Shown here: positions 50 through 50,035 of the stretch, in pieces
How the letters are laid out: every line of letters starts with the position of its first letter
Position numbering within the stretch: position 1 is the stretch's first letter
Virus record (IMG/VR): IMGVR_UViG_3300029240_000001
Direction: 5' to 3' (one strand)
DNA length: 64,000 nt
Source of the DNA: a virus
The notes under the pieces: generated by a model
Database searches by the model: none
What the model was told of the DNA's origin: nothing
The model's input: only the letters and a program-made list of their open reading frames with translations
Made by a program: the position numbers and the translations under genes

Positions 50-1252
50 TCACTCATTGTCGACCACCTGCCCATTTTCATCAATAAACCCTTTTCCCTT
101 TAAAAAGTCTTTTAAATCCTTATTTTCAACCAATAAAACTCTTGCTCTCTCTTGCGCCTTGTCTCTTTCTTTAGTTAAGCTATCAACCAATTCCCTTCTA
201 ATATTTCCAATTTCATTCATTACATTCTCATCAAATCCAATTTGGTCAATTTGCGCTTTCGCACTAATTTCAGCAACTTGTTGCATGCCTCTACAGTAAT
301 CAATGTCATAAGTATTAATCTTAGCGTTTCTAAATCCTATCAAATCTAATTCTTTCATCTTCCCAGTAAGAGTGTTCTGCCCTTTGCTTTTAGAATTGTT
401 ATAATTAATACTAATGCCATTATCCTTAGCTAACGCATTCGCGCCACTTAATAGTTTTGATATTGTGTCAGCATGTTGCTTGATAATACCATTATTATTG
501 TTTAATTTTGAAATATTTGAAGATAACTTATCAATAGCGTCATTAATCTTTTGTATTTGATTAAACGCTTTAACTATCTGAATAACTGCGTTCATTTTCA
601 TTCCGTCATTTTTCGTTTCATCATCAATAAAACTAATCAACTGCGCATACAGAACTGGTTTGTCTTCCTCAATTGGATATTTTGCAAATGGGTCATATCC
701 AATTATTCTAATTGCATCCTTCCTATTAATTGCATATTCTCGCTCAATTTCTTTCTTTCGATCTTCAGTAACAACATATGTATCAGAATCATCCGATGTC
801 AAATTAACTCTTTTTCCTATATCTCCATCATGCCATCTTAAAGTTTTATATTGTTTCAATGAGCAAATATTTTTAATATAAGCTTCCCATGTGTCTCCGT
901 GAAGAGCTCTATTGCTAGGGTCATTCCCTTCCACATAACTGGAATTAAACAGATTTTCGAAAAATGGCTTATCCAACCTTTCTAGGGCCTCAATAATTGA
1001 TTCCTTTGTGCAATCTCCATATTGTCCAGTTTTTGGGTCATAGTTCCTTGCTATTTTCTTCGCGCAGTCCTTACACATGTTCGTAACCCCAGTCCTAACC
1101 AACGGATCTGTACTCACATAATATTCAGACCTTTTCTTCACTGTATTGCAATAAGGGCAAAGATAACTTGGCTCTTCAACTTTTGGTTTTGGCCTACCAG
1201 CTTTTTTTGCACCGGTTGGTTTTCTTCCGGGTTTTTTTGCAGTAGTTGGCAT
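50..1252 (-). CDS. hypothetical protein; basic N-terminus, CxxC..CxxC zinc ribbon, coiled-coil-rich C-half
   Basis: 400-aa ORF; KKPGRKPTGAKKAGRPKPK then CPYC...CKDC; last gene of leftward block; no family recognised. Confidence 0.6.
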   Translation of the reverse strand: MPTTAKKPGRKPTGAKKAGRPKPKVEEPSYLCPYCNTVKKRSEYYVSTDPLVRTGVTNMCKDCAKKIARNYDPKTGQYGDCTKESIIEALERLDKPFFENLFNSSYVEGNDPSNRALHGDTWEAYIKNICSLKQYKTLRWHDGDIGKRVNLTSDDSDTYVVTEDRKKEIEREYAINRKDAIRIIGYDPFAKYPIEEDKPVLYAQLISFIDDETKNDGMKMNAVIQIVKAFNQIQKINDAIDKLSSNISKLNNNNGIIKQHADTISKLLSGANALAKDNGISINYNNSKSKGQNTLTGKMKELDLIGFRNAKINTYDIDYCRGMQQVAEISAKAQIDQIGFDENVMNEIGNIRRELVDSLTKERDKAQERARVLLVENKDLKDFLKGKGFIDENGQVVDNE

Positions 1253-1529: not shown

Positions 1530-2726
1530 TTAAAGTTTAATATTATAAGTGCAAATTTTCCCATCTTCTTTGTTAAAAATGCACAAAGTTTGAGCAGGAT
1601 TTGCATATAATCTCTTATTATTGGCGTAGTCATCAGTTCCACACAAGGAGCTCACCATTACATTATCAATTCCATAAGAATCAATTGTCTCAGAGTGATG
1701 CTTATCCCCAGAAAACACATATTCAACATCGAGTCCATATTTCTTGCCAAACAGGGTGTGCATATCCACCCCAAGTTTATTGAAGCGTTCTAGGTCTCCA
1801 TGAACTGCAACGATATCATGACCGAGTACATTAAAGAAAATAAACTCATTAATATTATTGTCGCGAACATGAACCTTGTAATTCTTAGCAAGTCTTTGTT
1901 TAATCCACCAAGGAATAATCTTCTCCATATTGTCTGAATGGATGCTATCATTCTTATTTTGTACTGTTCTCGCATGATTTCCATAAGTAGAATAAACATA
2001 CACATCATTAACATTTTGTGACAGCCCATTAATAAGTTCCGCTAAAATTTCAGACACTTCCATCAACTGGTCACAAGTATCTTCTTCAGAGGCAACTCTT
2101 GCAGAAGTATGTATGCTTCCGTGTATAAAATCTCCAAGTAATACAACATGAAGAGTTCTTATCCAATGTAGCTTTAAATATTCGCTTGCTTTCTTGAATA
2201 AAGTGTTAACACGGGCTAGACACTCATTTGTATCATATTTATTCCAGATATTATCTGCAACCATGCCGAAATGCCAGTCTGTCAAGACAAGAACTGCTTC
2301 TTCATTAGAACCAACAGGCAAAATTTGATTCGTACTCAAAAACTTGTCTTTGCTTAAATTCTCAGCCGCTTCAATTAATTTTTCTGTCAAATGTTCGGCT
2401 CTCGCATCACTTGCAAGCAGCTTATTATATTCTCTTCTCTGGTCTTGAAACTGCTTTTTAACCTTATAAAGTTCTTCTCTCTCCGCTTGAATCTTTTTCA
2501 GATACTCGTCATCTGTAAAAACTTGCTTCTCGCAGCTCTTAAGACCATGCTGAAACATTTGATATTTTTTACGATAAGCGGACTCCCCGTAGTTTTGATC
2601 GAGAGCAGCATTAATAATGTCCGCAACTTGCTGCCACGTCATACCAGATGACTCTTTTAGCGAACAAATGCGGTAAATATACTGTTCTTCGCTCTCTTGC
2701 GCGGGATTAAAGTTAATTATCTCCAT
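1530..2726 (-). CDS. calcineurin-like metallophosphoesterase (Mre11/SbcD-type fold) with N-terminal helical extension
   Basis: Ordered motifs LTDWH, LLGDFIHG, YGNHAR, AVHGD, SGDKHH; start moved from track 2747 to MEIINF (AAAGGA SD 8 nt upstream). Confidence 0.75.
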   Translation of the reverse strand: MEIINFNPAQESEEQYIYRICSLKESSGMTWQQVADIINAALDQNYGESAYRKKYQMFQHGLKSCEKQVFTDDEYLKKIQAEREELYKVKKQFQDQRREYNKLLASDARAEHLTEKLIEAAENLSKDKFLSTNQILPVGSNEEAVLVLTDWHFGMVADNIWNKYDTNECLARVNTLFKKASEYLKLHWIRTLHVVLLGDFIHGSIHTSARVASEEDTCDQLMEVSEILAELINGLSQNVNDVYVYSTYGNHARTVQNKNDSIHSDNMEKIIPWWIKQRLAKNYKVHVRDNNINEFIFFNVLGHDIVAVHGDLERFNKLGVDMHTLFGKKYGLDVEYVFSGDKHHSETIDSYGIDNVMVSSLCGTDDYANNKRLYANPAQTLCIFNKEDGKICTYNIKL

Positions 2727-2765
2727 TCCTTTTGTCCTTTCTCGCATATAACAAAAAGACGAGGA

Positions 2766-3092
2766 TTATTCCTCGCCTTTAATGTTCTCATTGCATGCTG
2801 CTCTAATTTTTAACTGATATGCCTGTGTAAACTTAGCCACCGGATAAATATGGTCATCACTAACCGTTCTCTCACCAGTTCTTGGCTTGAAAGTTTCCTT
2901 TCCCTTAAAAAACTTAGCATTAATATTAAGCCCTTCAAATAGCTTAATTGTTGCCAGATTGTCAGGTGCAGACTCCGATAGTAGCTGAGTAATTACAGCA
3001 AAAGTCGCATCATAAATGTCCTTCACTGCACCCTGATAATACCCAGATTCCTTTGCTACCATTTTAACTAGATCTTTCTGTTTATAAACCAT
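2766..3092 (-). CDS. HU/IHF-family DNA-binding protein
   Basis: 108 aa; N-term KQKDLVKMVAKESG...AVKDIYDA..VITQLL and arm FKPRTGERT...PVAKF align with bacterial HU layout. Confidence 0.75.
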   Translation of the reverse strand: MVYKQKDLVKMVAKESGYYQGAVKDIYDATFAVITQLLSESAPDNLATIKLFEGLNINAKFFKGKETFKPRTGERTVSDDHIYPVAKFTQAYQLKIRAACNENIKGEE

Positions 3093-3137: not shown

Positions 3138-3320
3138 TTACGCAAGCTCTTCGCCATAAGCAATACTGAGCTTAACGTCTTTATCATTAAAATCCGCAAA
3201 TAGACTAATTAGCGGAATATATTCGCCAGTGTCGTCGTTCTCAACAAACACCTGATTGTCTTGAATGTGAAGAATTCCATTTGCCTGAACTGTGTACTTG
3301 CTCTGAATTTTTGCTGCCAT
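3138..3320 (-). CDS. small hypothetical protein (60 aa)
   Basis: ORF in operon spacing between HU-like and PhoH genes; no family recognised. Confidence 0.5.
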   Translation of the reverse strand: MAAKIQSKYTVQANGILHIQDNQVFVENDDTGEYIPLISLFADFNDKDVKLSIAYGEELA

Positions 3321-4793: not shown

Positions 4794-4850
4794 AGCCTCA
4801 TGCAAATGCGTATGATTTTTGCATGAGGCTATAATTTTGTATTGTGTCAA
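4794..4850 (-). promoter_or_regulatory. conserved box TTGACACAATACAAAATTATAG (minus strand) immediately followed by a 13-bp-stem hairpin
   Basis: Box core at 4831-4845 with TTGAC at 4846-4850; hairpin AGCCTCATGCAAA/TTTGCATGAGGCT at 4794-4830; no -10 hexamer at 17-nt spacing. Confidence 0.6.
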
Positions 4851-4860
4851 AATGGGCGAC

Positions 4861-5760
4861 CTACTGAATTTTATTCTTCCGTTTTTCATATGCACGTTTA
4901 TTTTGTAACGATTTCAGCTTTTTATCGTGTTTTTCTTTACATGTCTGGCACCTGCAAGTCTCATTATCAAATTCGCTTACCTCAACTACTTCACCGCAAT
5001 CAATGCACCATATTTGCAGTGGGGGAGAAGCTGCAAGAGAGCAGTCGGTACAGACGTTATCGCTTGCTTTGCGCTTCATTAGTTTACCACAGCGAGTGCA
5101 TCTCTTAAATTCTTCTTTGCCTTTCCAATTCAGATATACATACGCTAATTCTTGACAGTCAACTTCATTCAAACGAAGTGCTTCTTTTCCGTCTTTCTCT
5201 ATAAAATTGACCCACAAGCACTTTGTATCATTTCGCTTTGGGCAACTTATTAGTCCCTGAACGAGAATATAGTGCAGAATATATTCTCTATCATCTGCAG
5301 GAACGGATACTCTTGCAATTTTGCACAGCTCCGTAACAGTATATCTAACAAGACCACCTGTAAAATTAGACGATGTCCCATAAAAATCATTGATTTTTGC
5401 TTGCTGTTTTGCCATACATAGGAGTACAAACGTCATTTTTTCTGCTCTGATATTGTTTAAAGTTTCTATCTTTTTCAGCTCATTTTGAGTAATAACAATA
5501 TCATCTAACTCATAAAGTGCTCGCTTTTTTGCTCCTTTAATTGCGTTTGAAATAACATTTGAATAACTTGCTTCATCAAAATTAATTTGATGTTTTGTCA
5601 TCCATGCAACAGTGGAATTATAATTCTCGTTATCGTCTTTCCCCAATATTTGAGAATTATATCTAGTAATATAACCAATCTTCTTAATGGCCGACTTGAC
5701 GTCCTGATTTTTACCAAGTAACAGATTCATTGCATATTTTTTCTCATTCAATACTATCAT
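4861..5760 (-). CDS. hypothetical protein with C-terminal multi-CxxC zinc-ribbon region
   Basis: Start moved to MIVLNEKKY (GGTGGTG SD 6 nt upstream), overlapping the upstream stop; ends in TAG followed by the promoter box. Confidence 0.6.
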   Translation of the reverse strand: MIVLNEKKYAMNLLLGKNQDVKSAIKKIGYITRYNSQILGKDDNENYNSTVAWMTKHQINFDEASYSNVISNAIKGAKKRALYELDDIVITQNELKKIETLNNIRAEKMTFVLLCMAKQQAKINDFYGTSSNFTGGLVRYTVTELCKIARVSVPADDREYILHYILVQGLISCPKRNDTKCLWVNFIEKDGKEALRLNEVDCQELAYVYLNWKGKEEFKRCTRCGKLMKRKASDNVCTDCSLAASPPLQIWCIDCGEVVEVSEFDNETCRCQTCKEKHDKKLKSLQNKRAYEKRKNKIQ

Positions 5761-8629
5761 GTTCATCACCACCAAATTCTTTAGTATACAAGGAAAATGT
5801 TTTACCACAGAATTCTATGTCACCATTTTCATCTTTGATTGGAAATTGCATTTTATTTCCACTATTTCTTAATACATTTTTAAAAATTTGTTCGCCAGCA
5901 ACATCCCAAGCAAAAGATTTATTCTTACTAGACGTATAACAAACATCGACAACAATATTAGCGAGTACTTCCTTATTCTCACACACAAAAGCGCATTCTT
6001 CAGAAAATGTATCCTTAAATTGAGACATTACAAGGTCTCTTTCTTCTTTGCCAACATCATTTTTCTTAACACCTTTTAAAAAGACTTGGATATTGCTGTT
6101 ATACTCTTCATACAATGCTTGTACCGCATCAAATTCTTCCTGAGAATATTCCACATCGCTCTTTAAAATAGAAGCATCAAAATCCACGTTTGGCAGCACA
6201 TCTGTCGTCTTAAACTCGTCCTCAATCTTCCAACAAATTCTGTTCATTGTGCCGGGAGCTCTACTAACAGGAAGATATTTTTCATAATTATAGATAAATG
6301 TTTCTTCTTCGTCAGTCAAGTATTCAGATGTACACAAATCTTCTAAGGTTTTGCCGAACCTTATTTTACAATTTGATCTTACAGATTTCATGTATTTATC
6401 AAGTTCTGATTTTAACTGAGAATACCTATAAATAAAAAACCATGGCTTTATATTTGCTGCTATTCTCGTATCAATTTCTTTATCATGCAATATTTCAGGC
6501 GTGTCGCCTGACTTTGGCTTGTGCATTCTTGTCTCTAGCCATTCTTTTGGCACTGGCCTAGCAACAACCCCCTTAATGCGATCGATGGCATTTTGTTGAT
6601 AATTCATCATTGTGTTGATTCTATCAGTTAGTCGCCTATATTCTTCGCTATCTGGCTCAAACTTCTCTCTCAAAGAAATCATATTTGTTGCTTTGTTAGT
6701 TACACTTCCAATAGAATCTCCAAAGCCATTAATGTCTGAAGTAATAAAATCTTCTTCTACTGGAACCTTCTTTGGCATTTTATCTTGCACACACATTAAT
6801 GTTGGCTTGTATTCAAACGCCTCAATAAGCACATGTGTATCACTTGTGAAGAAACTATCAGAATCGTAGTCAGCGCCGTTGCATCTGATAGCAGTAGTGT
6901 CCCAACTGTTAAGAATACAGCAAGTTTTGATATATCTATACCATTTTCTCATCTCTTGATTGGCAACAACATTAAGCTTACAAACATTTTCAATTGAAGT
7001 CATTGGTGCACGGAAGGCGACAATCTCATTGACATTTTTATCAATCCAAAAGCGATGATAGCATTCCCCTGCATGTAACAAGCCTGTAATATCTAACCCA
7101 AACATGCTCTGTAATAGTGAATATGGGTCATTTCCTATAATTGCATAATCTCCTTCAACATCTAGAACCCCTATTTTTGCAGTTTTAATGCGTTTTTGGA
7201 TCATCCTACTAACCTTAGAACGCACATAAGGGTCTTTGATTAGCTCTGTATTTGCCATAATTGCTTTGCACATGGGCTCCATATGCTCAACATTATTTTC
7301 ATCAAGCCCAGTCCCGCACATATAAAGAATTAACTTTCTCCAATCCAAGCCAAGACATTCTTTGATTTTTGTCACCGTTGGTGCAACCAACTCATCAATT
7401 TGCTCGTCTGTGAATTTGAAATCTTGCAAATACTGATAATTTGTTGTATGAACATTTCGCAGCTCACGAGGAGCACTCTTGGCTATGCAAAAATCATATT
7501 CATTCTCTTTACAATTGCGAACATAATCTTCACATCCTGCGTAAGAATCCCATAGCTTTAACATAGAAGTTGTCAGAATTAAATCTGCATCCCTTACGTC
7601 CCTTTTATCTCCCCACGCATCAGTTATTTCATACGTGTGTGCCACTTCTTCAGCGAACTGAACAAAAGGCACCGTGAATACCATGCCCTTTAAAAATGCG
7701 CATCTGGTATTATATCCAGAGAGCGGTTCAGTACCTTCTCCCAATAATTCTGCCCACTTGCCACTCATTTCTGGAGAAATAAAACCCATGCCATCAGAAA
7801 CATTATAATCAATCATTTCTTCGTGTGGCTCGCTTACACTTGGCCAATCAGGATTTTTTTCATTCCCAGTATCTTTAACTATTCTTACAGGGTAGTTAAA
7901 ATGCGTTTCTGCATCTTTTACTACAATGATACGTGGCCATGGTCTTTTCTCGTCAGTAAATGACCCTACTGTGATACTAGCGGAGCACTGCAGCGCAAAA
8001 TATGCAGACAACTTTGCTGGAATAAACTTGTAATTGAGCTCCATCCCATTATAAGTTTTTACTGGCTCTAAAAGATTGTTATTCTCATCAACTTTTGGCC
8101 CGAGATAGCGCCCATTATTAATACGACTCATAATCTCGTCATGCAAGTTTTCGTTGATAAACATAATTGTGCTCTTTTTAATAGAACCTGCGGTTCCAAG
8201 TAAGCGAACATAAGTTACGGTTTGTGGCTCATTGCCGTCATCATAATCAATAGTAGCCTTAAATTTGTTCTTGCATACATATTTGTAATCTCCCGGAGAG
8301 TCCATAACAAGCATTACATAATCTTGCTGAAACTGCGTTTGATACAAATTATTGTACAATCTACGGATTTGCGCCTTATTTTCTGGCGTATTGTCCAATT
8401 TCTTCGTTTTTTGAATAGCTTCTTTAATTTTAGAAGCTGTTTTGTCATCTTCCTCTTTGTGTTGCAGCTCTGTCAACCATCTTAGCACTTGAGAAGAGCC
8501 CAAACTAACAACCATTTGCGGCTGCTTTCTGATTTCATTCAATTTTAGGGTTAAATGCCAATTGTGCTTTGCCAAGTAGCCACTATGAATTTTTAGTACA
8601 TAAGTTTGATTCTTTTGCTGTTTTGCCAA
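5744..8629 (-). CDS. RdRP-family / YonO-like two-barrel polymerase candidate (single-subunit RNA polymerase)
   Basis: 961 aa, TTG start after GGTGGTGA; SDGMGFIS (nt 7775-7798) and FRAPMTS...CNGADYDSDSFF (DxDxD, nt 6857-6880) match hallmark blocks of the cellular RdRP/QDE-1 family. Confidence 0.6.
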   Translation of the reverse strand: MAKQQKNQTYVLKIHSGYLAKHNWHLTLKLNEIRKQPQMVVSLGSSQVLRWLTELQHKEEDDKTASKIKEAIQKTKKLDNTPENKAQIRRLYNNLYQTQFQQDYVMLVMDSPGDYKYVCKNKFKATIDYDDGNEPQTVTYVRLLGTAGSIKKSTIMFINENLHDEIMSRINNGRYLGPKVDENNNLLEPVKTYNGMELNYKFIPAKLSAYFALQCSASITVGSFTDEKRPWPRIIVVKDAETHFNYPVRIVKDTGNEKNPDWPSVSEPHEEMIDYNVSDGMGFISPEMSGKWAELLGEGTEPLSGYNTRCAFLKGMVFTVPFVQFAEEVAHTYEITDAWGDKRDVRDADLILTTSMLKLWDSYAGCEDYVRNCKENEYDFCIAKSAPRELRNVHTTNYQYLQDFKFTDEQIDELVAPTVTKIKECLGLDWRKLILYMCGTGLDENNVEHMEPMCKAIMANTELIKDPYVRSKVSRMIQKRIKTAKIGVLDVEGDYAIIGNDPYSLLQSMFGLDITGLLHAGECYHRFWIDKNVNEIVAFRAPMTSIENVCKLNVVANQEMRKWYRYIKTCCILNSWDTTAIRCNGADYDSDSFFTSDTHVLIEAFEYKPTLMCVQDKMPKKVPVEEDFITSDINGFGDSIGSVTNKATNMISLREKFEPDSEEYRRLTDRINTMMNYQQNAIDRIKGVVARPVPKEWLETRMHKPKSGDTPEILHDKEIDTRIAANIKPWFFIYRYSQLKSELDKYMKSVRSNCKIRFGKTLEDLCTSEYLTDEEETFIYNYEKYLPVSRAPGTMNRICWKIEDEFKTTDVLPNVDFDASILKSDVEYSQEEFDAVQALYEEYNSNIQVFLKGVKKNDVGKEERDLVMSQFKDTFSEECAFVCENKEVLANIVVDVCYTSSKNKSFAWDVAGEQIFKNVLRNSGNKMQFPIKDENGDIEFCGKTFSLYTKEFGGDEHDSIE

Positions 8630-8650
8630 TAAATATCACCACCTACGACA

Positions 8651-8709
8651 ATAATTTTGTATTGTCCTTTTGAACAAGCCTATTATACCACAAACTTCAC
8701 AAATGTCAA
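8651..8709 (-). promoter_or_regulatory. sigmaA-type promoter (TTGACA-N16-TATAAT, TG-extended) followed by the conserved box, upstream of the polymerase gene
   Basis: Minus strand: TTGACA at 8704-8709, TATAAT at 8682-8687, box ACAATACAAAATTAT at 8651-8665. Confidence 0.65.
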
Positions 8710-9676: not shown

Positions 9677-10076
9677 TGTAACACCTCCCCAAATCAATAC
9701 TTCTATTACTTATCCCATTGTAATCCCCTAACGACATATAATAATATGCGTTATCTTCATCTGTGACTTGAAATCCGTACTTGTCATAAACATGTTTTGC
9801 TATAATATTGCTTTTCTTTACGGCTAAATTTTTAGCACCACATCTTTTTGTAGCATAATCTAAAAGTTGATAGGATAATCCAAGTCCTCTATACTTTTCA
9901 TTGATTTCGAGATCGCTAATATTTTTACCATCCCACCAATCCCAAATTTTAAATTCAGCAACACAATTACCATTTTTTGTATGCCATTTATATTGGATTG
10001 ATGGAGTTTTCCCCAACATTACTTGTTTTGTTGTCATATTAAGATTTCTAAGTTCTTTGTATGTCAGACCAGTCAT
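9669..10076 (-). CDS. GNAT-family N-acetyltransferase
   Basis: YRGLGLSYQLLDYATKRC...AKHVYDKYGFQV matches the GNAT motif A (R/QxxGxG/A) and beta-bulge region. Confidence 0.7.
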   Translation of the reverse strand: MTGLTYKELRNLNMTTKQVMLGKTPSIQYKWHTKNGNCVAEFKIWDWWDGKNISDLEINEKYRGLGLSYQLLDYATKRCGAKNLAVKKSNIIAKHVYDKYGFQVTDEDNAYYYMSLGDYNGISNRSIDLGRCYNE

Positions 10077-13819: not shown

Positions 13820-15052
13820 TTAATTTTCAATCATCTTCTTCCCAAGTTTTAAATCTTCTGGTTTATCCACGCCAATCCAGTCAATAAGTAGGTTTCGCAT
13901 GCGCTTGCTAGGAATATAGAGCCAAATTTCTTTTCCATCACGAATTGCAGATCTAAAAATCCATTGGATTAGTTCTGATAGAGCATAGGCATCTTCCTCC
14001 ACGCGCACTCCATTCTGTGTGAAGAAATTCTTTAGCACAGGACTAAAAAATCTATTAAGCAGATAAGCAACTGCATAGCATTCTCTATAGGTGTTAACCG
14101 CTCTTGCGTTACATGCTAGGAATCCACGCGAATATCCTGCGCCACTTAGCTTATTCTTATAATCAGAAAATGTTGTCCACAGATTTGCTTTTGACGGAGT
14201 GTTCATTCTTCTACGAAAAAAAGTATTAAGATTGTTCTTAATTTGCTTCATACAATCATTATTTCTATTTCTAAAATACCACGTTTTAGATAATGAATTG
14301 TCAGCAAATCCAATTCTATTCAGTTTATCATCATCAATAATATGAATTAAACTTTTGTAATCTGGAATAGAATAAATCACTTCTTCGTCTGTGAAGTGAT
14401 ATGTGTCCAAAGAATCTCCAGCAACATAAATATATTTATATTCAACATTATGATAATCATAATAATATCTTTGCAACTGCGCATCAAACATATAAGTCAA
14501 AATATAAATGTCATCAAATGCTTTAAATGCCTCAACAGGAAATAACCACAGAAGGACACAATCTCCATATATAGCCACCATGTTAAGCTCACAAAGCTTT
14601 TTGTATTTTTCAAATTCCCCTTTATATGTTTCTGCTGTCCAATGAAGCATATGTCCGTCTACAATTTCAACATACTTTTCTAGTAGTGTATCTAGGTCAT
14701 CTTTTGTAATATCTAACTCCTGAACAACGTCAGCAACTTCGTCCATAATAAGTACATACCCATAGCTCCGTGCAATGTCAATAATCTCTTGATCAAATTT
14801 TAAAAATAGTGCATGTGTTGACACAATGTTATAACCCTTATTAAATAGCTGCTTGATATCATTTAGTTTTGATCCGTGCATTTCTGGTTGTTTAAATTTT
14901 TTCTCTGGACAAGAATTAATAATTCTTTGTACTTCATCTAAGAATGGTGTAATGTATAAAATTCTTATATCATCCGGTGTGCTGTTAATATAATTAATTG
15001 CTGCACTAGTTTTTCCTGCCCCCGGTAGGGCATCTACAATCTTGACTTCCAT
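13820..15052 (-). CDS. P-loop NTPase (putative helicase/replication-type ATPase)
   Basis: Walker A DALPGAGKTS near the N-terminus, Walker B VLIMDEVADV; AAGGAGG SD; first gene of the leftward block. Confidence 0.55.
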   Translation of the reverse strand: MEVKIVDALPGAGKTSAAINYINSTPDDIRILYITPFLDEVQRIINSCPEKKFKQPEMHGSKLNDIKQLFNKGYNIVSTHALFLKFDQEIIDIARSYGYVLIMDEVADVVQELDITKDDLDTLLEKYVEIVDGHMLHWTAETYKGEFEKYKKLCELNMVAIYGDCVLLWLFPVEAFKAFDDIYILTYMFDAQLQRYYYDYHNVEYKYIYVAGDSLDTYHFTDEEVIYSIPDYKSLIHIIDDDKLNRIGFADNSLSKTWYFRNRNNDCMKQIKNNLNTFFRRRMNTPSKANLWTTFSDYKNKLSGAGYSRGFLACNARAVNTYRECYAVAYLLNRFFSPVLKNFFTQNGVRVEEDAYALSELIQWIFRSAIRDGKEIWLYIPSKRMRNLLIDWIGVDKPEDLKLGKKMIEN

Positions 15053-23757: not shown

Positions 23758-23774
23758 ACAATACAAAATTATAG
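23758..23774 (+). promoter_or_regulatory. conserved box ACAATACAAAATTATAG
   Basis: Perfect core at 23758-23772; SD GAGGGAG starts 1 nt after TATAG. Confidence 0.6.
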
Positions 23775-30789: not shown

Positions 30790-30818
30790 TTGACACAATA
30801 CAAAATTATTGATATAAT
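30790..30818 (+). promoter_or_regulatory. sigmaA-type promoter TTGACA-N17-TATAAT whose spacer is the conserved box
   Basis: TTGACA at 30790-30795, box at 30795-30809, TATAAT at 30813-30818. Confidence 0.75.
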
Positions 30819-34575: not shown

Positions 34576-34604
34576 TTGACAAAACAAAATTATAGCGTTA
34601 TAAT
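34576..34604 (+). promoter_or_regulatory. sigmaA-type promoter TTGACA-N17-TATAAT containing box variant ACAAAACAAAATTATAG
   Basis: TTGACA at 34576-34581, TATAAT at 34599-34604. Confidence 0.7.
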
Positions 34605-34882: not shown

Positions 34883-35365
34883 ATGAATAATGGCATCATG
34901 TGTGATTATTTTGACTATGACGGAATTAGATATTATGCTGGTTCAAAATTTAAATGTAACAATTTTGTAAAGACAAACGTTCAACTTTTTCCAGAAATTG
35001 AAGTCACATTTGTCAAGTATAATAAGAAGTCTAATATTTGCCGCATTCGCAGTAATGTTGCTATGTGTGAATTTGAGTTCGCGCTTAGTACTTTTACAGA
35101 CAATATTATTTGCGTCACTTGTCCTAAGACAAAAGAAGTTGTAAATAAAACAAATGAAAAATATGAAAATGACAAACAATATTATCACTGGGTCGAAGAC
35201 GGAGAAGACTGTTATAAGGCAAAGCCAGATGCCATTGGACTAGGTTGGGTGTGGTACATTTCTCTTATGGTAGTTGCGACGATCTTCAAGGGAGCTCTTG
35301 GTCTCTGGGCTCTTATTACGTTTGTTTTTGTAAGATGGAGAAAAAAGAAAATTAAGGAGGGATAA
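34883..35365 (+). CDS. hypothetical protein with C-terminal TM anchor (160 aa)
   Basis: GGAGGAGG SD; GLGWVWYISLMVVATIFKGALGLWALITFVFV. Confidence 0.6.
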   Translation: MNNGIMCDYFDYDGIRYYAGSKFKCNNFVKTNVQLFPEIEVTFVKYNKKSNICRIRSNVAMCEFEFALSTFTDNIICVTCPKTKEVVNKTNEKYENDKQYYHWVEDGEDCYKAKPDAIGLGWVWYISLMVVATIFKGALGLWALITFVFVRWRKKKIKEG

Positions 35366-35368
35366 AAA

Positions 35369-36343
35369 ATGACAGGCAGGACTGAAAAGGAAATTGCGTC
35401 AACTAAAAAAATGCAAGAAAAACTGAAAGAACTTCCTAAAATCTTTTCTGAATTTTATTATTATATGTGTTCAACAAAATCTTATACAACAGTTGAAAGA
35501 TATATTGCATATGTAAGGGAATTTGCAGAATTCTTGAATGATGGGGACATTCCAAATAACTTTTACAAGAGAGTTACTCCGCTAGATATTAACAAATATT
35601 TTGCGGCAATGAAGAATAAAGAAAGCGCACATGGGCATTATAATACGAGTGACAGTATTCGTGCGACAAAATGGTCTGCGCTGAATACTTTCTTTGGATT
35701 TCTTAAGAGTAATAACTATATTGCAAATAATCCAATGGAGAGAACGGAGCGTCCAAAAGTTCAGGATAGACCAGATGTCGCCTATTTGACAGAAGAAGAG
35801 ATGCAAGCAATTCTAGACAATGTAAACAAACTTGCAAGCACAAAGATGAAAAACAGAGATTTGGCAATTATTATGCTTGGACTTACAACTGGACTTCGTG
35901 TATCAGCACTTACGCAAATTGATATTAGCGATATTGATTTTGAGAATAATACTATCAAGGTTATTGAAAAGCGAGGAAAAACATGTAATATTCTTATTGG
36001 AGATAAGGTAAAGGAACAGCTCGAATTGTGGTTACAAGATAGAAAAAAATATTTTAGCATGACAGATTCCGATGCGCTGTTTATTTCTAGTTTTAAGAAA
36101 AGAATTACTAGAGATGGAATCAGGGTGATTCTAGAGAAATATAGCAAAGATGTTACAAATAAGCATGTTACTCCACATGTACTAAGGCATTCTTGCGCAA
36201 CAAATCTATATGAGAAGACAGGAGATATTTATCTTTGTGCAACAGTGCTAAATCATAAAAATATTGCTACTACCATGAGATATGCAAGTATGTCTAAAGA
36301 TAAAAAACAGAAAGCAGCAAATATTTTGAACGACATGATTTAA
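35369..36343 (+). CDS. tyrosine recombinase/integrase (XerC/D-like)
   Basis: N-terminal SAM-like core-binding region; GLRVSAL, HVLRHSCAT, LNHKNIATTMRY with the catalytic R..HxxR..Y pattern. Confidence 0.85.
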   Translation: MTGRTEKEIASTKKMQEKLKELPKIFSEFYYYMCSTKSYTTVERYIAYVREFAEFLNDGDIPNNFYKRVTPLDINKYFAAMKNKESAHGHYNTSDSIRATKWSALNTFFGFLKSNNYIANNPMERTERPKVQDRPDVAYLTEEEMQAILDNVNKLASTKMKNRDLAIIMLGLTTGLRVSALTQIDISDIDFENNTIKVIEKRGKTCNILIGDKVKEQLELWLQDRKKYFSMTDSDALFISSFKKRITRDGIRVILEKYSKDVTNKHVTPHVLRHSCATNLYEKTGDIYLCATVLNHKNIATTMRYASMSKDKKQKAANILNDMI

Positions 36344-38092: not shown

Positions 38093-38109
38093 ACAATACA
38101 AAATTATAG
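38093..38109 (+). promoter_or_regulatory. conserved box ACAATACAAAATTATAG
   Basis: Perfect core; SD AAAGGAG 4 nt downstream. Confidence 0.6.
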
Positions 38110-46937: not shown

Positions 46938-47022
46938 GGGTCAGTAGCGAATCGGCAAACGCAGCAGACTGTAAATCTGCCTCCTTCGGGAATAGGTGGA
47001 TCGACACCACCCTGACCCACCA
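46938..47022 (+). tRNA. tRNA-Tyr(GUA), class II
   Basis: Acceptor GGGTCAG/CTGACCC + A + CCA; GCAGA-CTGTAAA-TCTGC; variable arm TCC-TTCG-GGA; T-arm GGTGG-ATCGACA-CCACC. Confidence 0.85.
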
Positions 47023-47201
47023 AATGATAGTGAGTAGTGCAAATAGAAAAGATAAGAACGAAATAGTACCTTGTATGGTGGATAAACCTATTAATCACTT
47101 ATTGATTTTATTGGAGTCATGCACGGCTCCGCTTGCTATCATTACCATAGGTCTTTGTGGCAACTGTACGACCTTATAAACTACTAAAGTTGCAATATTA
47201 T

Positions 47202-47277
47202 GCTCCGGTAGTTTAATTGGTCAAAACGTGCGACTTATAATCGCTTGTTGGGGGATCGTGGCCCTCTCGGAGCACCA
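47202..47277 (+). tRNA. tRNA-Ile(UAU)
   Basis: Acceptor GCTCCGG/TCGGAGC + A + CCA; D-arm GTTT-AATTGGTC-AAAC; loop CTTATAA; T-arm GGGGG-ATCGTGG-CCCTC. Confidence 0.75.
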
Positions 47278-47309
47278 CATTAAATTTTACACTGAAGAAG
47301 TGATGACAT

Positions 47310-47990
47310 TTGAGTAATGACGTAATAGGAACTAGAATTGGCATTTACGATATTTTATATGAATGTAATTTTAAATCAAATGATGGACATAAATTGTACC
47401 ATGTCAAATGTTGCGAATGCGGATATGAAACTAATATGCAACTAAGACATATTGGTGATGCAAAAAAATGTACCCATATCAATAAAAATGGGACAATAAA
47501 AATGTTTAGCGCTTATACTTGGGAGAACAAAAGAATAGGCGGAATATTCCAAGGCATGATCCAAAGATGCTACAACGAGCATGATAAAAGTTATCGTTGG
47601 TATGGGGCTAAAGGAATTCAAGTCTATGATGAATGGATTAACAATCCAAAGTCCTTTGAATATTGGGCTTTAGAGAATGGTTATGCAGACGATTTAACGA
47701 TTGATAGAATTAAAGAAGATGATAATTATTGCCCTGAAAATTGTAGATGGGTTACTGGATCGAATAATGCAAAGTATAAATCCACCACAAAAATGACTAC
47801 GGTAGATGGTATATCCCATACTGGAAGAGAATGGGCAGATATTCTTCATGTTGGAACAAATGTTATAAATACAATGTTAAGAAGGTTTCCAGAAGAACAA
47901 GTAAAGGAATTCATTAAAAAGCGAAAATTAGATCCGTCAAAGCATCCAACTAGTCATCAAACTTGGTTCCAAGTTTATGAGATTTCATAA
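47310..47990 (+). CDS. HNH-type homing endonuclease embedded in the tRNA array
   Basis: 226 aa, TTG start; ...YRWYGAKGIQVYDEW...LTIDRIKEDDNYCPENCRWVT..N resembles the phage HNH_3-type DRID(N)..NY.P.NCRW core. Confidence 0.65.
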   Translation: MSNDVIGTRIGIYDILYECNFKSNDGHKLYHVKCCECGYETNMQLRHIGDAKKCTHINKNGTIKMFSAYTWENKRIGGIFQGMIQRCYNEHDKSYRWYGAKGIQVYDEWINNPKSFEYWALENGYADDLTIDRIKEDDNYCPENCRWVTGSNNAKYKSTTKMTTVDGISHTGREWADILHVGTNVINTMLRRFPEEQVKEFIKKRKLDPSKHPTSHQTWFQVYEIS

Positions 47991-48240
47991 TTCCCAGATC
48001 AAAGTCAACAACAAAGATTGCTGACCTGTCGTGTGGCAGCATATAAATGAGCGACTTAATACATTTTCCATATAGCTCCTTAAAAATTGCTTTAAGCAAA
48101 GCGTAAATGCTTATCGCTACTAATCATTAGCGGTTGTTGAAACATAAATGAAACACTGAGGTCGGAAAGGCTCCCGACGCTCCTCTTATGAGGAACCTGA
48201 GATGCAGGATACGCCGCCCTGCCAGTGTTTAAAATTATAT

Positions 48241-48311
48241 TATCGTATAGCTTAATGGGAAAGCGCCCTCACTATCAGAGGGAGATACTTGTTCGATTCA
48301 AGTTGCGTTAG
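48241..48311 (+). tRNA. tRNA-like, anticodon loop ACTATCA (UAU with C33); identity uncertain
   Basis: Acceptor TATCGTA/TGCGTTA (6/7); D-arm GCTT-AATGGGA-AAGC; CCCTC-ACTATCA-GAGGG; canonical T-arm ACTTG-TTCGATT-CAAGT; no CCA. Confidence 0.4.
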
Positions 48312-48389
48312 AAAAATGTGGATGCTATGCACGTCGCGCGCCGCCACTAAACAAAGCGTAGCTGGCGCTGTGGAAAGACACAGAGATCT

Positions 48390-48474
48390 GCAGGAGTCCC
48401 ATAGTGGTCGATTGGAGCGGTTTTGTAAGCCGCCAGCTTTGCTCACGTCGGTTCGAATCCGACCTCCTGCTCCA
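48390..48474 (+). tRNA. class-II (long variable arm) tRNA with anticodon UGU
   Basis: Acceptor GCAGGAG/CTCCTGC + U + CCA; D-arm CCA-TAGTGGTCGAT-TGG; GCGGT-TTTGTAA-GCCGC; 13-nt variable arm; T-arm GTCGG-TTCGAAT-CCGAC. Confidence 0.55.
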
Positions 48475-48596
48475 CATTGCCAGCTATCGCTGCTTGTAGT
48501 TAGTGAGTTGTTTTAGAAGCAGTAAACCCACAAGTATGGTGGGCGGCACACCAGTAGTCGTTAAGGGCGAGATCAAGATGAACTGGTACATTATAT

Positions 48597-48712
48597 GCAA
48601 GTAAGGAAGAATTGGTCTTCTCTCATTTAACAAAGCTGAGATACAAAAAGATCGCTACTTTGGAAACGTTCGCTTTGGGGAAATGTGTGTTCGAATCACA
48701 CTACTTGCTCCA
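48597..48712 (+). ncRNA. tRNA-like gene (116 nt) with 11-nt anticodon-position loop and ~43-nt extra region
   Basis: Acceptor GCAAGTA/TACTTGC 7/7 + U + CCA; D-arm GAAG-AATTGGT-CTTC; TCTCA-TTTAACAAAGC-TGAGA; canonical T-arm GTGTG-TTCGAAT-CACAC. Confidence 0.45.
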
Positions 48713-48836
48713 GCGAGGTAACGTCACTTCCATCACGTAGCACAGCGGATAGCAAATAATGAAAGAGATATGTGCACCTAGGCTCTTGTTTGAATTATTT
48801 GGTTATGATAAAGAAGGATTGGAAACCTCGCTTTAT

Positions 48837-48926
48837 GAGAGCGTAACTCAGTTGGTAGAGTTTTATAGCGTGAAGGGATATGCTATTGAATACCCTTAGT
48901 CGCCAGTTCGAGTCTGGCCGCTCTCA
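48837..48926 (+). ncRNA. tRNA-like gene (90 nt) with ~18 extra nt around the anticodon arm
   Basis: Acceptor GAGAGCG/CGCTCTC 7/7; canonical D-arm ACTC-AGTTGGTA-GAGT and T-arm GCCAG-TTCGAGT-CTGGC; interleaved ATAGC/GCTAT and AAGGG/CCCTT pairings in between. Confidence 0.45.
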
Positions 48927-48953
48927 TTAAAATATATATTAGGAGAAATAGTT

Positions 48954-49208
48954 ATGGCAATTAAAATAATTAGTAAAGGAAAAGATTTTGATAATCCTAT
49001 ATTTACCCAGCGATGCCCTAAATGCGATTGCGTATTTACCTATCAGAATGAAGATGCTCACAGGGAGCCTACTGGCAGGTATTACAAAGATTTTGAAGAT
49101 TATTTTATTAAAATGGACGATTGCGACAGACAAGAAATTGCAGTATCTGTTGAATGTCCTTGGTGTCATAAAAAGATTCATATAAAGGATGAATATAAAA
49201 AGATATGA
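48954..49208 (+). CDS. small zinc-ribbon protein (84 aa) inside the tRNA array
   Basis: TAGGAG SD; CPKCDC...CPWCH. Confidence 0.6.
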   Translation: MAIKIISKGKDFDNPIFTQRCPKCDCVFTYQNEDAHREPTGRYYKDFEDYFIKMDDCDRQEIAVSVECPWCHKKIHIKDEYKKI

Positions 49209-49346
49209 AAGATTACAGTGTAATTGCTCAATTTTAATGGAGTATTATGAATTGGCATGCAATAAAATTTATGGATGAATGTTATCGTCCGACAAGTTAA
49301 TGGGTTCTTGTCGAAGATAAAAACCCTTATTTGATATAACTAGTAT

Positions 49347-49421
49347 GGGTCTGTAATTCAATAGTAGAATATACGCCTTTTAAGCGTACTACGGACGGAG
49401 CGTAACCGCCCAGACCCACCA
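49347..49421 (+). tRNA. tRNA-Lys(UUU)
   Basis: Acceptor GGGTCTG/CAGACCC + A + CCA; D-arm ATTC-AATAGTA-GAAT; TACGC-CTTTTAA-GCGTA; T-arm GACGG-AGCGTAA-CCGCC (one mismatch). Confidence 0.75.
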
Positions 49422-49519
49422 TTTATTCTCTTCAGTTTTGCGTCATGAAGATCTATGTACAATCTTCTGCTCTGTTACCTGTTTATGCAGGTTAGATGAA
49501 TAAAGGCAGAGCTATTTAT

Positions 49520-49596
49520 GGCTGGCGGGAGGTTGGCATCTCAACTTGGCTCATAATCAAGCTCAATTCAGTTCGATTCTGAAGCTCAGCAACCAA
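49520..49596 (+). tRNA. tRNA-Met/Ile2(CAU)-like; acceptor stem poorly paired
   Basis: CTTGG-CTCATAA-TCAAG anticodon arm and canonical T-arm TTCAG-TTCGATT-CTGAA, 3' ...GCTCAGCAACCA; I could not pair a clean 7-bp acceptor; ends approximate. Confidence 0.35.
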
Positions 49597-49598
49597 AT

Positions 49599-49672
49599 AG
49601 CGGATTAGTGTAATAGTAGCACGACAGACTTTGGATCTGTAGGTAGGGGGGCAGAACCTCTATCCGCTGCCA
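49599..49672 (+). tRNA. tRNA-Gln(UUG)
   Basis: Acceptor AGCGGAT/ATCCGCT + G + CCA; D-arm GTGT-AATAGTA-GCAC; ACAGA-CTTTGGA-TCTGT; T-arm AGGGG-GGCAGAA-CCTCT. Confidence 0.75.
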
Positions 49673-49702
49673 TATAAAACAATAAACTAGGAGGAACAAA
49701 CA

Positions 49703-49819
49703 ATGAATACAAGAACCAAACTACATTACGAGAACCGCATTGCAAAGCTTAAGGCCAAGGGCGAAGTGATGAATGACAAGCTTATCAAGAAGGCACAGCG
49801 GCAGATGAACAAGCTGTAA
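49703..49819 (+). CDS. 38-aa basic peptide (below cutoff) inside the tRNA array
   Basis: TAGGAGG SD 7 nt upstream; MNTRTKLHYENRIAKLKAKGEVMNDKLIKKAQRQMNKL. Confidence 0.45.
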   Translation: MNTRTKLHYENRIAKLKAKGEVMNDKLIKKAQRQMNKL

Positions 49820-49961
49820 CAAAAGTCAATCCCAATTTAAATAGGAACAAAGAGCGCCGTTGGTAGGCATACGGCATATAAACCGCCTACTTGCAACAAT
49901 TGGTGACGGCCTCACCTAAAACAGCCGGTCGCTACTGCTCAATTGCGGCTCCTATAAATAT

Positions 49962-50035
49962 GCGGGTATAATGTAGTGGTAACATATGACCCCTCCAAGG
50001 TCAGATGGCGAGTTCAAATCTCGTTGCCCGCTCCA
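49962..50035 (+). tRNA. tRNA-Gly(UCC) with C33
   Basis: Acceptor GCGGGTA/TGCCCGC + U73 + CCA; D-arm ATGT-AGTGGTA-ACAT; TGACC-CCTCCAA-GGTCA; T-arm GCGAG-TTCAAAT-CTCGT. Confidence 0.8.

Follow-up and report, generated by a model that had tools for sequence, protein, structure and literature searches.

A divergent phage relative of the YonO RNA polymerase and a conserved zinc-ribbon neighbour as its candidate accessory subunit

A stretch of 64,000 nucleotides (nt) from the viral record IMGVR_UViG_3300029240_000001, hereafter the window, encodes a protein of 961 amino acids (aa) whose sequence, profile matches, predicted fold and gene order support its placement among the two-barrel (double-psi beta-barrel) RNA polymerases (RNAPs), in their YonO-like branch. 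The gene runs on the minus strand from 8629 down to 5744, with a TTG start and a stop codon at 5744-5746. The open reading frame is real, as an earlier note on this DNA had described it, and the same four lines of evidence support the note's proposal of a phage single-subunit two-barrel RNAP. The protein is a clear relative of SPbeta YonO and a new, divergent member of an already known family, which was recognised as 'YonO-like' in 2003 (Iyer et al. 2003) and characterised in 2017 (Forrest et al., PMC5467207; see also PMC2919709). Homology, predicted fold, conservation of catalytic residues, gene order, promoter and an associated 17-bp box were computed here, and by analogy with SPbeta YonO we infer a DNA template, a role in the transcription of the phage late genes and the read-through of a terminator. 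The enzyme would very probably be a YonO-type single-subunit DNA-dependent RNAP of an SPbeta-like phage, expressed early from a sigmaA promoter and transcribing the late block, and the same role as that of YonO is suggested because of homology and synteny.

Against the YonO proteins of the SPbeta group, a tblastn search of GenBank phages gave 24% identity over residues 140-564, with E values down to 1e-13, and a pairwise BLASTP comparison with YonO reached 2e-15, the matches of both programs together spanning 1e-9 to 2e-15. A profile of the family, made from an alignment of 76 sequences whose identity to the query lies between 26 and 95% (mean column identity of 30%), was aligned by HHalign with SPbeta YonO over 665 columns with a probability of 100% (E 6e-54). 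Both polymerases show near full-length homology, the same order of catalytic blocks and a position upstream of an HU-like gene and then of YonK-, YonJ- and YonG-like genes, whereas they differ in sequence (about 24% identity), in length (961 aa here versus 839) and in the metal loop (DYDSD here versus DNDGD). The closest annotated relatives are those of Clostridium phage c-st (CST179/CST178, together with CST177) and Enterocloster phage PMBT24, which share 35-37% identity with the query over a coverage of 83-94%, with tblastn values of 37% for c-st and 35% for Enterocloster phages; the c-st genes are already annotated as YonO homologues in the phage record. Distant homologues likewise start with MAK..., and representative matches align from query residues 1-9, an N-terminal homology that supports the TTG start.

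No match was returned by a megablast of the first 25 kb of the window against GenBank phages, and no confirmed host relative was found in a scan of genome contigs. The identical polymerase protein is present on 8 metagenome contigs of up to 152 kb, where, if named at all, it is called 'hypothetical protein', and the family as a whole amounts to 1,631 clusters at 50% identity (E <= 1e-3). NCBIfam contains no family for the polymerase, and in PHROGs it falls into three families of unknown function. A Pfam scan with the full-length protein gave no match to the RNA-dependent RNA polymerase (RdRP) family PF05183, whereas residues 250-700 alone match it with E 1.6e-11 and 44.1 bits (gathering cutoff of 23.8), and a 95%-identical homologue matches it in full length (E 1.1e-12). 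The missed full-length match is an artefact of the HMMER filter, which could be the reason for the 'hypothetical' annotation of the clade.

The AlphaFold2 model obtained with the family alignment (pLDDT 91.3, pTM 0.87) is predicted to bring two double-psi beta-barrels together in one active-site cleft. In a Foldseek search of the PDB, the 21 hits at E <= 0.001 (9e-17 to 8e-12) were all cellular RdRPs, namely maize and Arabidopsis RDR2 and QDE-1, with TM scores of 0.35-0.48 over about 800-980 alignment columns. The similarity to QDE-1 and RDR2 extends over the entire model (Foldseek probability of 1.00), and bacterial beta' subunits come next, weakly (E of about 0.02-0.2). Such a fold comparison had been proposed in the earlier note, and neither a lack of the double-psi barrel nor an unrelated family at the top was seen. 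At the level of PDB sequences, phmmer with the polymerase protein found nothing relevant, and a profile search matched plant RDR2 and QDE-1 alone, with E values from 3e-4 to 1e-2, mainly by way of the DGxGxIS...KG block and to a lesser degree by the GxDxDGD block. The best structural matches, QDE-1 (2J7N) and plant RDR2 (7W82, 7EU0, 7ROZ), have in common with the phage protein and with PF05183 the motifs xDGxGxIS, RxxxxKG, RxP and DxDxD, although identity to the cellular RdRPs is only 10-14% and in eukaryotes these enzymes work on RNA templates as part of silencing pathways.

This likeness, the match to PF05183 and the annotation of relatives in PMBT24, Thomasclavelia phages and Perkons as RdRPs are what could be expected if the enzyme copied or amplified phage or host RNAs instead of transcribing DNA. 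However, those names come from the Pfam family and not from experiments, the sole characterised phage member, YonO, is a DNA-dependent RNAP for late genes, and the gene occupies the syntenic position of yonO in a double-stranded DNA phage, all of which makes an RNA-copying activity very unlikely. A DNA template would rather be expected here, because the gene of a double-stranded DNA phage lies in the yonO position. Membership in the Pfam RdRP fold is accepted, whereas the functional label of RNA silencing is doubtful, because there is no RNA-silencing context in bacteria or phages and YonO uses DNA.

The catalytic residues of the two-barrel enzymes are distributed along the protein in four blocks, all on the minus strand. 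In the first barrel, the block SDGMGFIS (residues 278-285, 7775-7798) carries D279, equivalent to QDE-1 D709 and Rpb2 D837, and aligns with the sDGiGkIS block of plant RDR2, and the RCAFLK block (7688-7705) carries the basic pair R309-x4-K314, equivalent to QDE-1 R738/K743, with the same spacing of 5, and to Rpb2 K979/K987. In the second barrel, R540-A-P542 (7004-7012, within FRAPMT; FRAPMTS) corresponds to QDE-1 R962/P964 and Rpb1 R446/P448, and the metal loop D587-Y-D589-S-D591 (6857-6871), contained in CNGADYDSDSFF, has its equivalents in DYDGD of QDE-1 and DNDGD of YonO, the latter being placed opposite DYDSD by HHalign. The motifs quoted in the earlier note were found where it had located them, its range 6857-6880 covering NGADYDSD. 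Eight residues are invariant in all two-barrel RNAPs, in QDE-1 D709, R738, K743, R962, P964, D1007, D1009 and D1011 (Ruprich-Robert & Thuriaux 2010, PMC2919709), and all of them are present here with matching spacing, seven being invariant in the family alignment and R309 nearly so. The invariant positions among the 76 sequences are D279, G280, K314, G315, R540, P542, D587, D589 and D591; in the alignment A1, R309 and G282 are each kept in 69 of 71 sequences, and R540 and P542 in all 71. As judged from this invariance of the catalytic residues across the 76 sequences, the motifs are not due to chance. The active site would be formed within one chain by D279, R309 and K314 from the first barrel and by R540, P542 and the D587/D589/D591 loop from the second, and in YonO the change of the Asp triad to Asn abolished catalysis (PMC5467207).

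The serine of the metal loop had been described as an atypical replacement of glycine, which holds in comparison with multi-subunit RNAPs, QDE-1 and YonO but not within the family itself, where the position varies and Ser is found in 119 of 120 homologues at >=73% identity. Among representatives at 50% identity, the fourth position of the loop is G in 70 cases, S in 12, Y in 8, F in 7, A in 3, and L and M in 2 each, and about one third of the family clusters lack Gly at this site. The invariance of this Gly in the multi-subunit enzymes, and its presence in QDE-1 and YonO, might suggest that its loss disabled catalysis and left a non-catalytic, nucleic-acid-binding relic. That the protein is such a relic is hardly credible, given that the close homologues share the Ser almost without exception, that the three Asp and five other invariant residues are kept, that S, Y, F, A, L or M occupy the position in about a third of the clusters, and that the protein is conserved in full length over some 1,600 clusters, which argues for purifying selection.

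In many homologues the gene has been called as two pieces split at the catalytic loop, metagenomic examples being N-terminal pieces ending in ...NGAD (P0189, P0201, P0223, P0231, P0232 and P0267) and C-terminal pieces starting with (M)FDGD... (P0175 and P0266). In c-st (locus L002), exon 1 ends with ...GMDMD at 5671 and exon 2 resumes with GDAVISTNN at 5989, so that the joined product reads DMDGD. The 317-nt insert in between (5672-5988 of that locus) follows a U, ends in G and matches the whole Rfam model Intron_gpI with E 1.9e-4, at 25 bits and thus below the gathering score of 50, and it is probable that the YonO homologue of c-st carries a group I intron within the codons of the DxDGD loop. 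The polymerase gene of the window, in contrast to that of c-st, is uninterrupted. Elsewhere in the c-st locus, a RAGATH-18 RNA motif (9965-10025, plus strand; 64 bits, above gathering) lies just 5′ of the HU-like gene CST174.

The genomic context of the polymerase gene is that of a phage of the SPbeta type. The window is phage DNA of about 36% GC with two diverging arms, minus-strand genes extending to about 15 kb and plus-strand genes beyond, and the phage would be a temperate, SPbeta-like one of about 150 kb, known from metagenomes only. On the 3′ side of the polymerase gene follow a gene for a partner protein of about 300 aa, ClpP-like and PhoH-like genes, a YonK-like gene, an HU-like gene, a terminator hairpin, a YonJ-like gene and a YonG-like gene, all in an order that mirrors yonO-yonN-yonK-yonJ...yonG-yonF-yonE-yonD of SPbeta, from which the window differs by the ClpP-like and PhoH-like genes inserted between the polymerase and HU-like genes. 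The YonK-like gene (3138-3320, minus strand) encodes 60 aa with a borderline match to Pfam YonK PF09642 (E 2.5e-5; 24.8 bits versus a cutoff of 25). The product of the HU-like gene (2766-3092, minus strand), the counterpart of SPbeta YonN, matches Pfam Bac_DNA_binding with 27.3 bits, and at the end of this gene there is a hairpin followed by a T-run resembling an intrinsic terminator (2755-2780, minus strand), which is kept at 13453-13478 of L004, a 95% relative. The YonJ-like gene (1530-2747, minus strand), the first of the presumed late block, matches SPbeta yonJ in tblastn with 25% identity (E 4e-28), and the product of its L004 counterpart carries Pfam YonJ_N; the YonG-like gene (50-1252, minus strand) has an L004 counterpart whose product carries Pfam YonG_N. 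In L004 the run goes on past the YonG-like gene into genes of 685 aa and 520 aa, which correspond by their position to terminase- and portal-like genes, and into a YonD_N gene. On the other side of the polymerase, a YonV homologue is found at 13820-15052, and the right arm carries YorI-, YorJ- and YorK-like replication genes. As in SPbeta-like genomes, both the HU-like gene and the operon of late structural genes lie downstream of the polymerase gene.

In SPbeta, YonO performs DNA-dependent, processive RNA synthesis (Forrest et al. 2017, PMC5467207), and 37 late genes depend on yonO, with a single start upstream of yonK (PMC5467207). By analogy, the polymerase of the window would act as a DNA-dependent RNAP that transcribes the late block, that is, the YonK-, HU-, YonJ- and YonG-like genes followed by terminase and portal, reading through the terminator at 2755-2780 on its way. 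Since this terminator adjoins the start of the YonJ-like gene, a late transcript would have to start upstream and read through it, a behaviour compatible with the reported ability of YonO to bypass pause signals. Past the terminator, the L004 stretch shows no strong sense-strand sigmaA promoter and no good copy of the box. A different task, the synthesis of primers or other short RNAs on single-stranded DNA templates during replication or recombination in place of long late transcripts, could be suspected from the PDB entry titles 7y7r, 7y7s and 7y7t, which describe QDE-1 bound to DNA templates, and from the neighbourhood of PhoH-like, HU-like and YonJ-like genes, the last of them matching a PHROG exonuclease family. 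However, genes for a DnaG-type primase and a DnaB-type helicase are already present in the window, and YonO is processive and needed for late mRNAs, so that a priming enzyme seems highly improbable.

Several observations weigh against the late-gene transcription proposed here. No promoter used by the polymerase was identified, a comparison of the SPbeta yonN-yonK gap with the left arm of the window giving short AT-rich matches only, and the late-gene region lies almost wholly beyond the window. The hairpin is found about 8-30 nt before the start of the YonJ-like gene (terminator at 2755; start at 2747 or 2726), which leaves essentially no room for a separate late promoter, so that either read-through by some polymerase or an upstream start would be needed. 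The metal loop carries Ser where YonO, QDE-1 and the multi-subunit RNAPs carry Gly, the closest solved structures are RNA-dependent enzymes, and the GenBank relatives are labelled 'RNA-dependent RNA polymerase'. Finally, the biochemistry is that of SPbeta YonO, which comes from outside the clade of this protein. In the literature searched, no later mechanistic or structural work on YonO was found.

The expression signals of the polymerase gene had been pointed out in the earlier note, and all of them could be located on the minus strand. The Shine-Dalgarno (SD) sequence GGTGGTGA (8636-8643), read directly from the DNA, is separated by a 6-nt spacer from the TTG codon at 8629-8627. Further upstream there is a sigmaA-type promoter with a TG extension, TTGACA-16-TGgTATAAT (8682-8709), which agrees with the consensus at 12 of 12 positions and is also found in L004, at 7524-7551. 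Between promoter and SD lies a copy of the 17-bp box, ACAATACAAAATTATTG (8649-8665), which is probably an SPBRE-type operator. The gene would be transcribed by the sigmaA RNA polymerase of the host, starting from this consensus promoter of its own, and a repressor bound to the box would probably silence it during lysogeny.

The box, with the consensus ACAATACAAAATTATAG, occurs in 31 copies in the window at <=3 mismatches, where chance alone would give 0.9, and almost every copy has the same orientation as the genes (examples at 4829-4845 and 8649-8665 on the minus strand, and at 23758-23774, 30795-30811, 38093-38109 and 56430-56446 on the plus strand). Three classes can be distinguished: copies 15-25 nt downstream of consensus sigmaA promoters, copies that themselves form the -35 element and the spacer (TTG+ACAATACAAAATTATTG+N3+TATAAT), and copies that lie directly 5′ of an SD and lack an obvious promoter. 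In SPbeta, the sequence ACAAATACAAATAATATG(TATATAAT) is found upstream of yonP, yonT, yonX, aimR, yopV, yorE, yorM, yorZ and yosX, and these genes account for 9 of the 10 targets found by ChAP-seq for the master repressor MrpR, the 15-bp site of which is SPBRE (PMC10516654); in that phage, SPBRE is the MrpR operator that controls the yonP-yonO operon. The box of the window and SPBRE have in common an ACA(A)ATACAAA core and a placement in the -35/spacer region of sigmaA-type promoters, and the promoter with an SPBRE-like box is a further likeness between the polymerase gene and yonP-yonO. The box goes with early and replication genes and is absent from the late-gene stretch of L004. Because of the SPBRE-like core, the arrangement overlapping promoters and the association with early genes, the box is most likely the operator of an MrpR-like repressor rather than the promoter of the polymerase.

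The opposite possibility, that the polymerase would use the box as a promoter in a T7-like manner to transcribe the box-marked early and middle genes, its own included, draws on the excess of copies and their orientation, on the asymmetry of the consensus and on several copies that end 0-10 nt before an SD without an obvious sigmaA promoter nearby. This use of the box is nevertheless unlikely, as many copies lie inside or just downstream of consensus sigmaA promoters, in the same way as SPBRE, the MrpR operator that is also found at yonP-yonO. Moreover, the genes marked by the box are those of replication and of the early phase, whereas YonO acts on late genes, and the L004 late stretch has no good box. 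The earlier note had taken the box as a transcription template for the polymerase, a part that it would hardly play given its likeness to SPBRE and its early genes, and an assay of transcription on box fragments is unlikely to be informative because the box is likely an operator. As an observation aside, directly 5′ of the yonK SD in SPbeta (NC_001884.1, about 59164-59180, minus strand) the sequence TAAATAGAAAATTATTG is followed by GGAGG, like the box-then-SD arrangement of the window; it has 4 mismatches to the box and could be a chance occurrence in AT-rich DNA.

No protein that binds the box could be identified in the window, and no homologue of MrpR was found by tblastn of all window open reading frames of >=50 aa against SPbeta. 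A tyrosine-recombinase-like gene at 35369-36343 was considered as the counterpart of MrpR (YopR) and rejected, BLASTP showing no similarity; its product is probably a real recombinase because the catalytic pattern R...HxxR...H...Y is kept. In this locus (34883-36343, plus strand), the 324-aa tyrosine recombinase lies behind a box-containing promoter and comes after a 160-aa protein that has a hydrophobic stretch at its C-terminus, and boxes are found around it at 34579 (plus), 36357 (minus), 37353 (minus) and 37373 (plus), the flanking boxes being divergent.

The gene that follows the polymerase deserves separate consideration. The partner gene (4861-5760, minus strand) encodes about 299 aa, or 315 aa if read from a GTG at 5808, and overlaps the 3′ end of the polymerase gene by about 17 nt. 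In the AlphaFold model of its product (pLDDT 79.7), the N-terminal domain is helical and the C-terminal helix is basic, and the protein also has a winged-helix-like segment and a zinc ribbon of the form CxxC...CxxC. A Foldseek search of the PDB with this model gave no significant match (best E 0.13), the weak hits being PCI, winged-helix, PerR-type and ORC-type proteins, and the partner has no family in NCBIfam. A profile search, in turn, retrieved 681 homologues, and the partner lies directly 3′ of the polymerase gene in all seven related loci examined, its homologues including CST177 of c-st (E 2e-16), a 240-aa protein of PMBT24 (E 1e-6), one in L009 (E 1e-7) and others in L004, L010 and L011. 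That the partner gene follows the polymerase in every relative examined is new here. The overlap between the two frames ranges from a few to about 17 nt in the window, L004, L009, L010 and PMBT24; the partner of c-st overlaps exon 2 of the polymerase gene, and that of L011 starts 10 nt downstream. The HU-like gene is also found downstream of both genes in every related locus examined, c-st and PMBT24 among them, directly 3′ of the partner or after one to a few genes.

The frame overlap suggests translational coupling, so that the polymerase would be translated together with the zinc-ribbon protein encoded downstream. SPbeta YonO has a C-terminal zinc ribbon, whereas here the ribbon sits on the separate, overlapping protein of about 300 aa, and the C-terminus of YonO (residues 786-823) aligns with the zinc ribbon of the partner (HHalign probability 88%, E 3e-6). 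Furthermore, in the homologue P0202 (1173 aa) the polymerase and the complete partner are naturally fused into one protein (probability 98.3%, E 1.3e-14, 230 columns). Fusion, adjacency and frequent overlap suggest a physical partnership between both proteins, which makes the partner a candidate accessory subunit of the polymerase. It is also conceivable, if still rather doubtful, that the YonO-type polymerases are two-component enzymes for which the partner would be the missing subunit of initiation or promoter specificity; a role in initiation is offered here solely as a hypothesis.

Other single-chain two-barrel RNAPs of phages, the crAss-like and P23-45 enzymes, are much more distant from the polymerase of the window. 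A Foldseek search of the BFVD viral models matched phage 'RdRP' proteins, crAss-like RNAPs, the phi14:2 protein S0A2C3 and a protein of Thermus phage P23-45, the last two with a fold similarity that is weak but significant (S0A2C3_2, E 6.5e-4, TM 0.14; A7XX94, E 9e-7); the crAss-like proteins are split in BFVD into several model chunks, each of more than 1,000 residues. The crAss-like enzyme gp66 of phi14:2 is a domain of a giant protein that is packaged in the virion and injected with the DNA, whereas the polymerase studied here is a stand-alone product of 961 aa with a consensus sigmaA promoter and an SD of its own, and nothing points to its packaging in the virion.

Apart from the polymerase locus, the window carries eight clustered tRNA genes (46938-50032, plus strand), and within this cluster lies a 'skipping-rope' RNA (RF02924) at 48151-48230 (78.8 bits, E 2e-17).

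YonO-type enzymes are the smallest known relatives of the cellular RNAPs that still transcribe double-stranded DNA processively, and in the literature searched only SPbeta YonO has been characterised. The family is large, with about 1,600 clusters at 50% identity, and its carriers are phages of about 150 kb that are met repeatedly in metagenome assemblies. To this family the window adds a divergent member that lacks an intron and has Ser as a natural variant in the metal loop, and the names 'hypothetical protein' and 'RNA-dependent RNA polymerase' given to the clade are thereby corrected. Beyond what was known before, the analysis contributes the partner gene, a new assignment of the box and a probable intron at the catalytic site of relatives, and the separately encoded zinc-ribbon partner offers a testable candidate for an initiation factor. 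If the two-component reading were true, it would explain why no determinant of promoter recognition has been found for YonO, and the enzymes would represent a minimal transcription machine of the 'core plus factor' kind with kinship to the cellular RNA polymerases.

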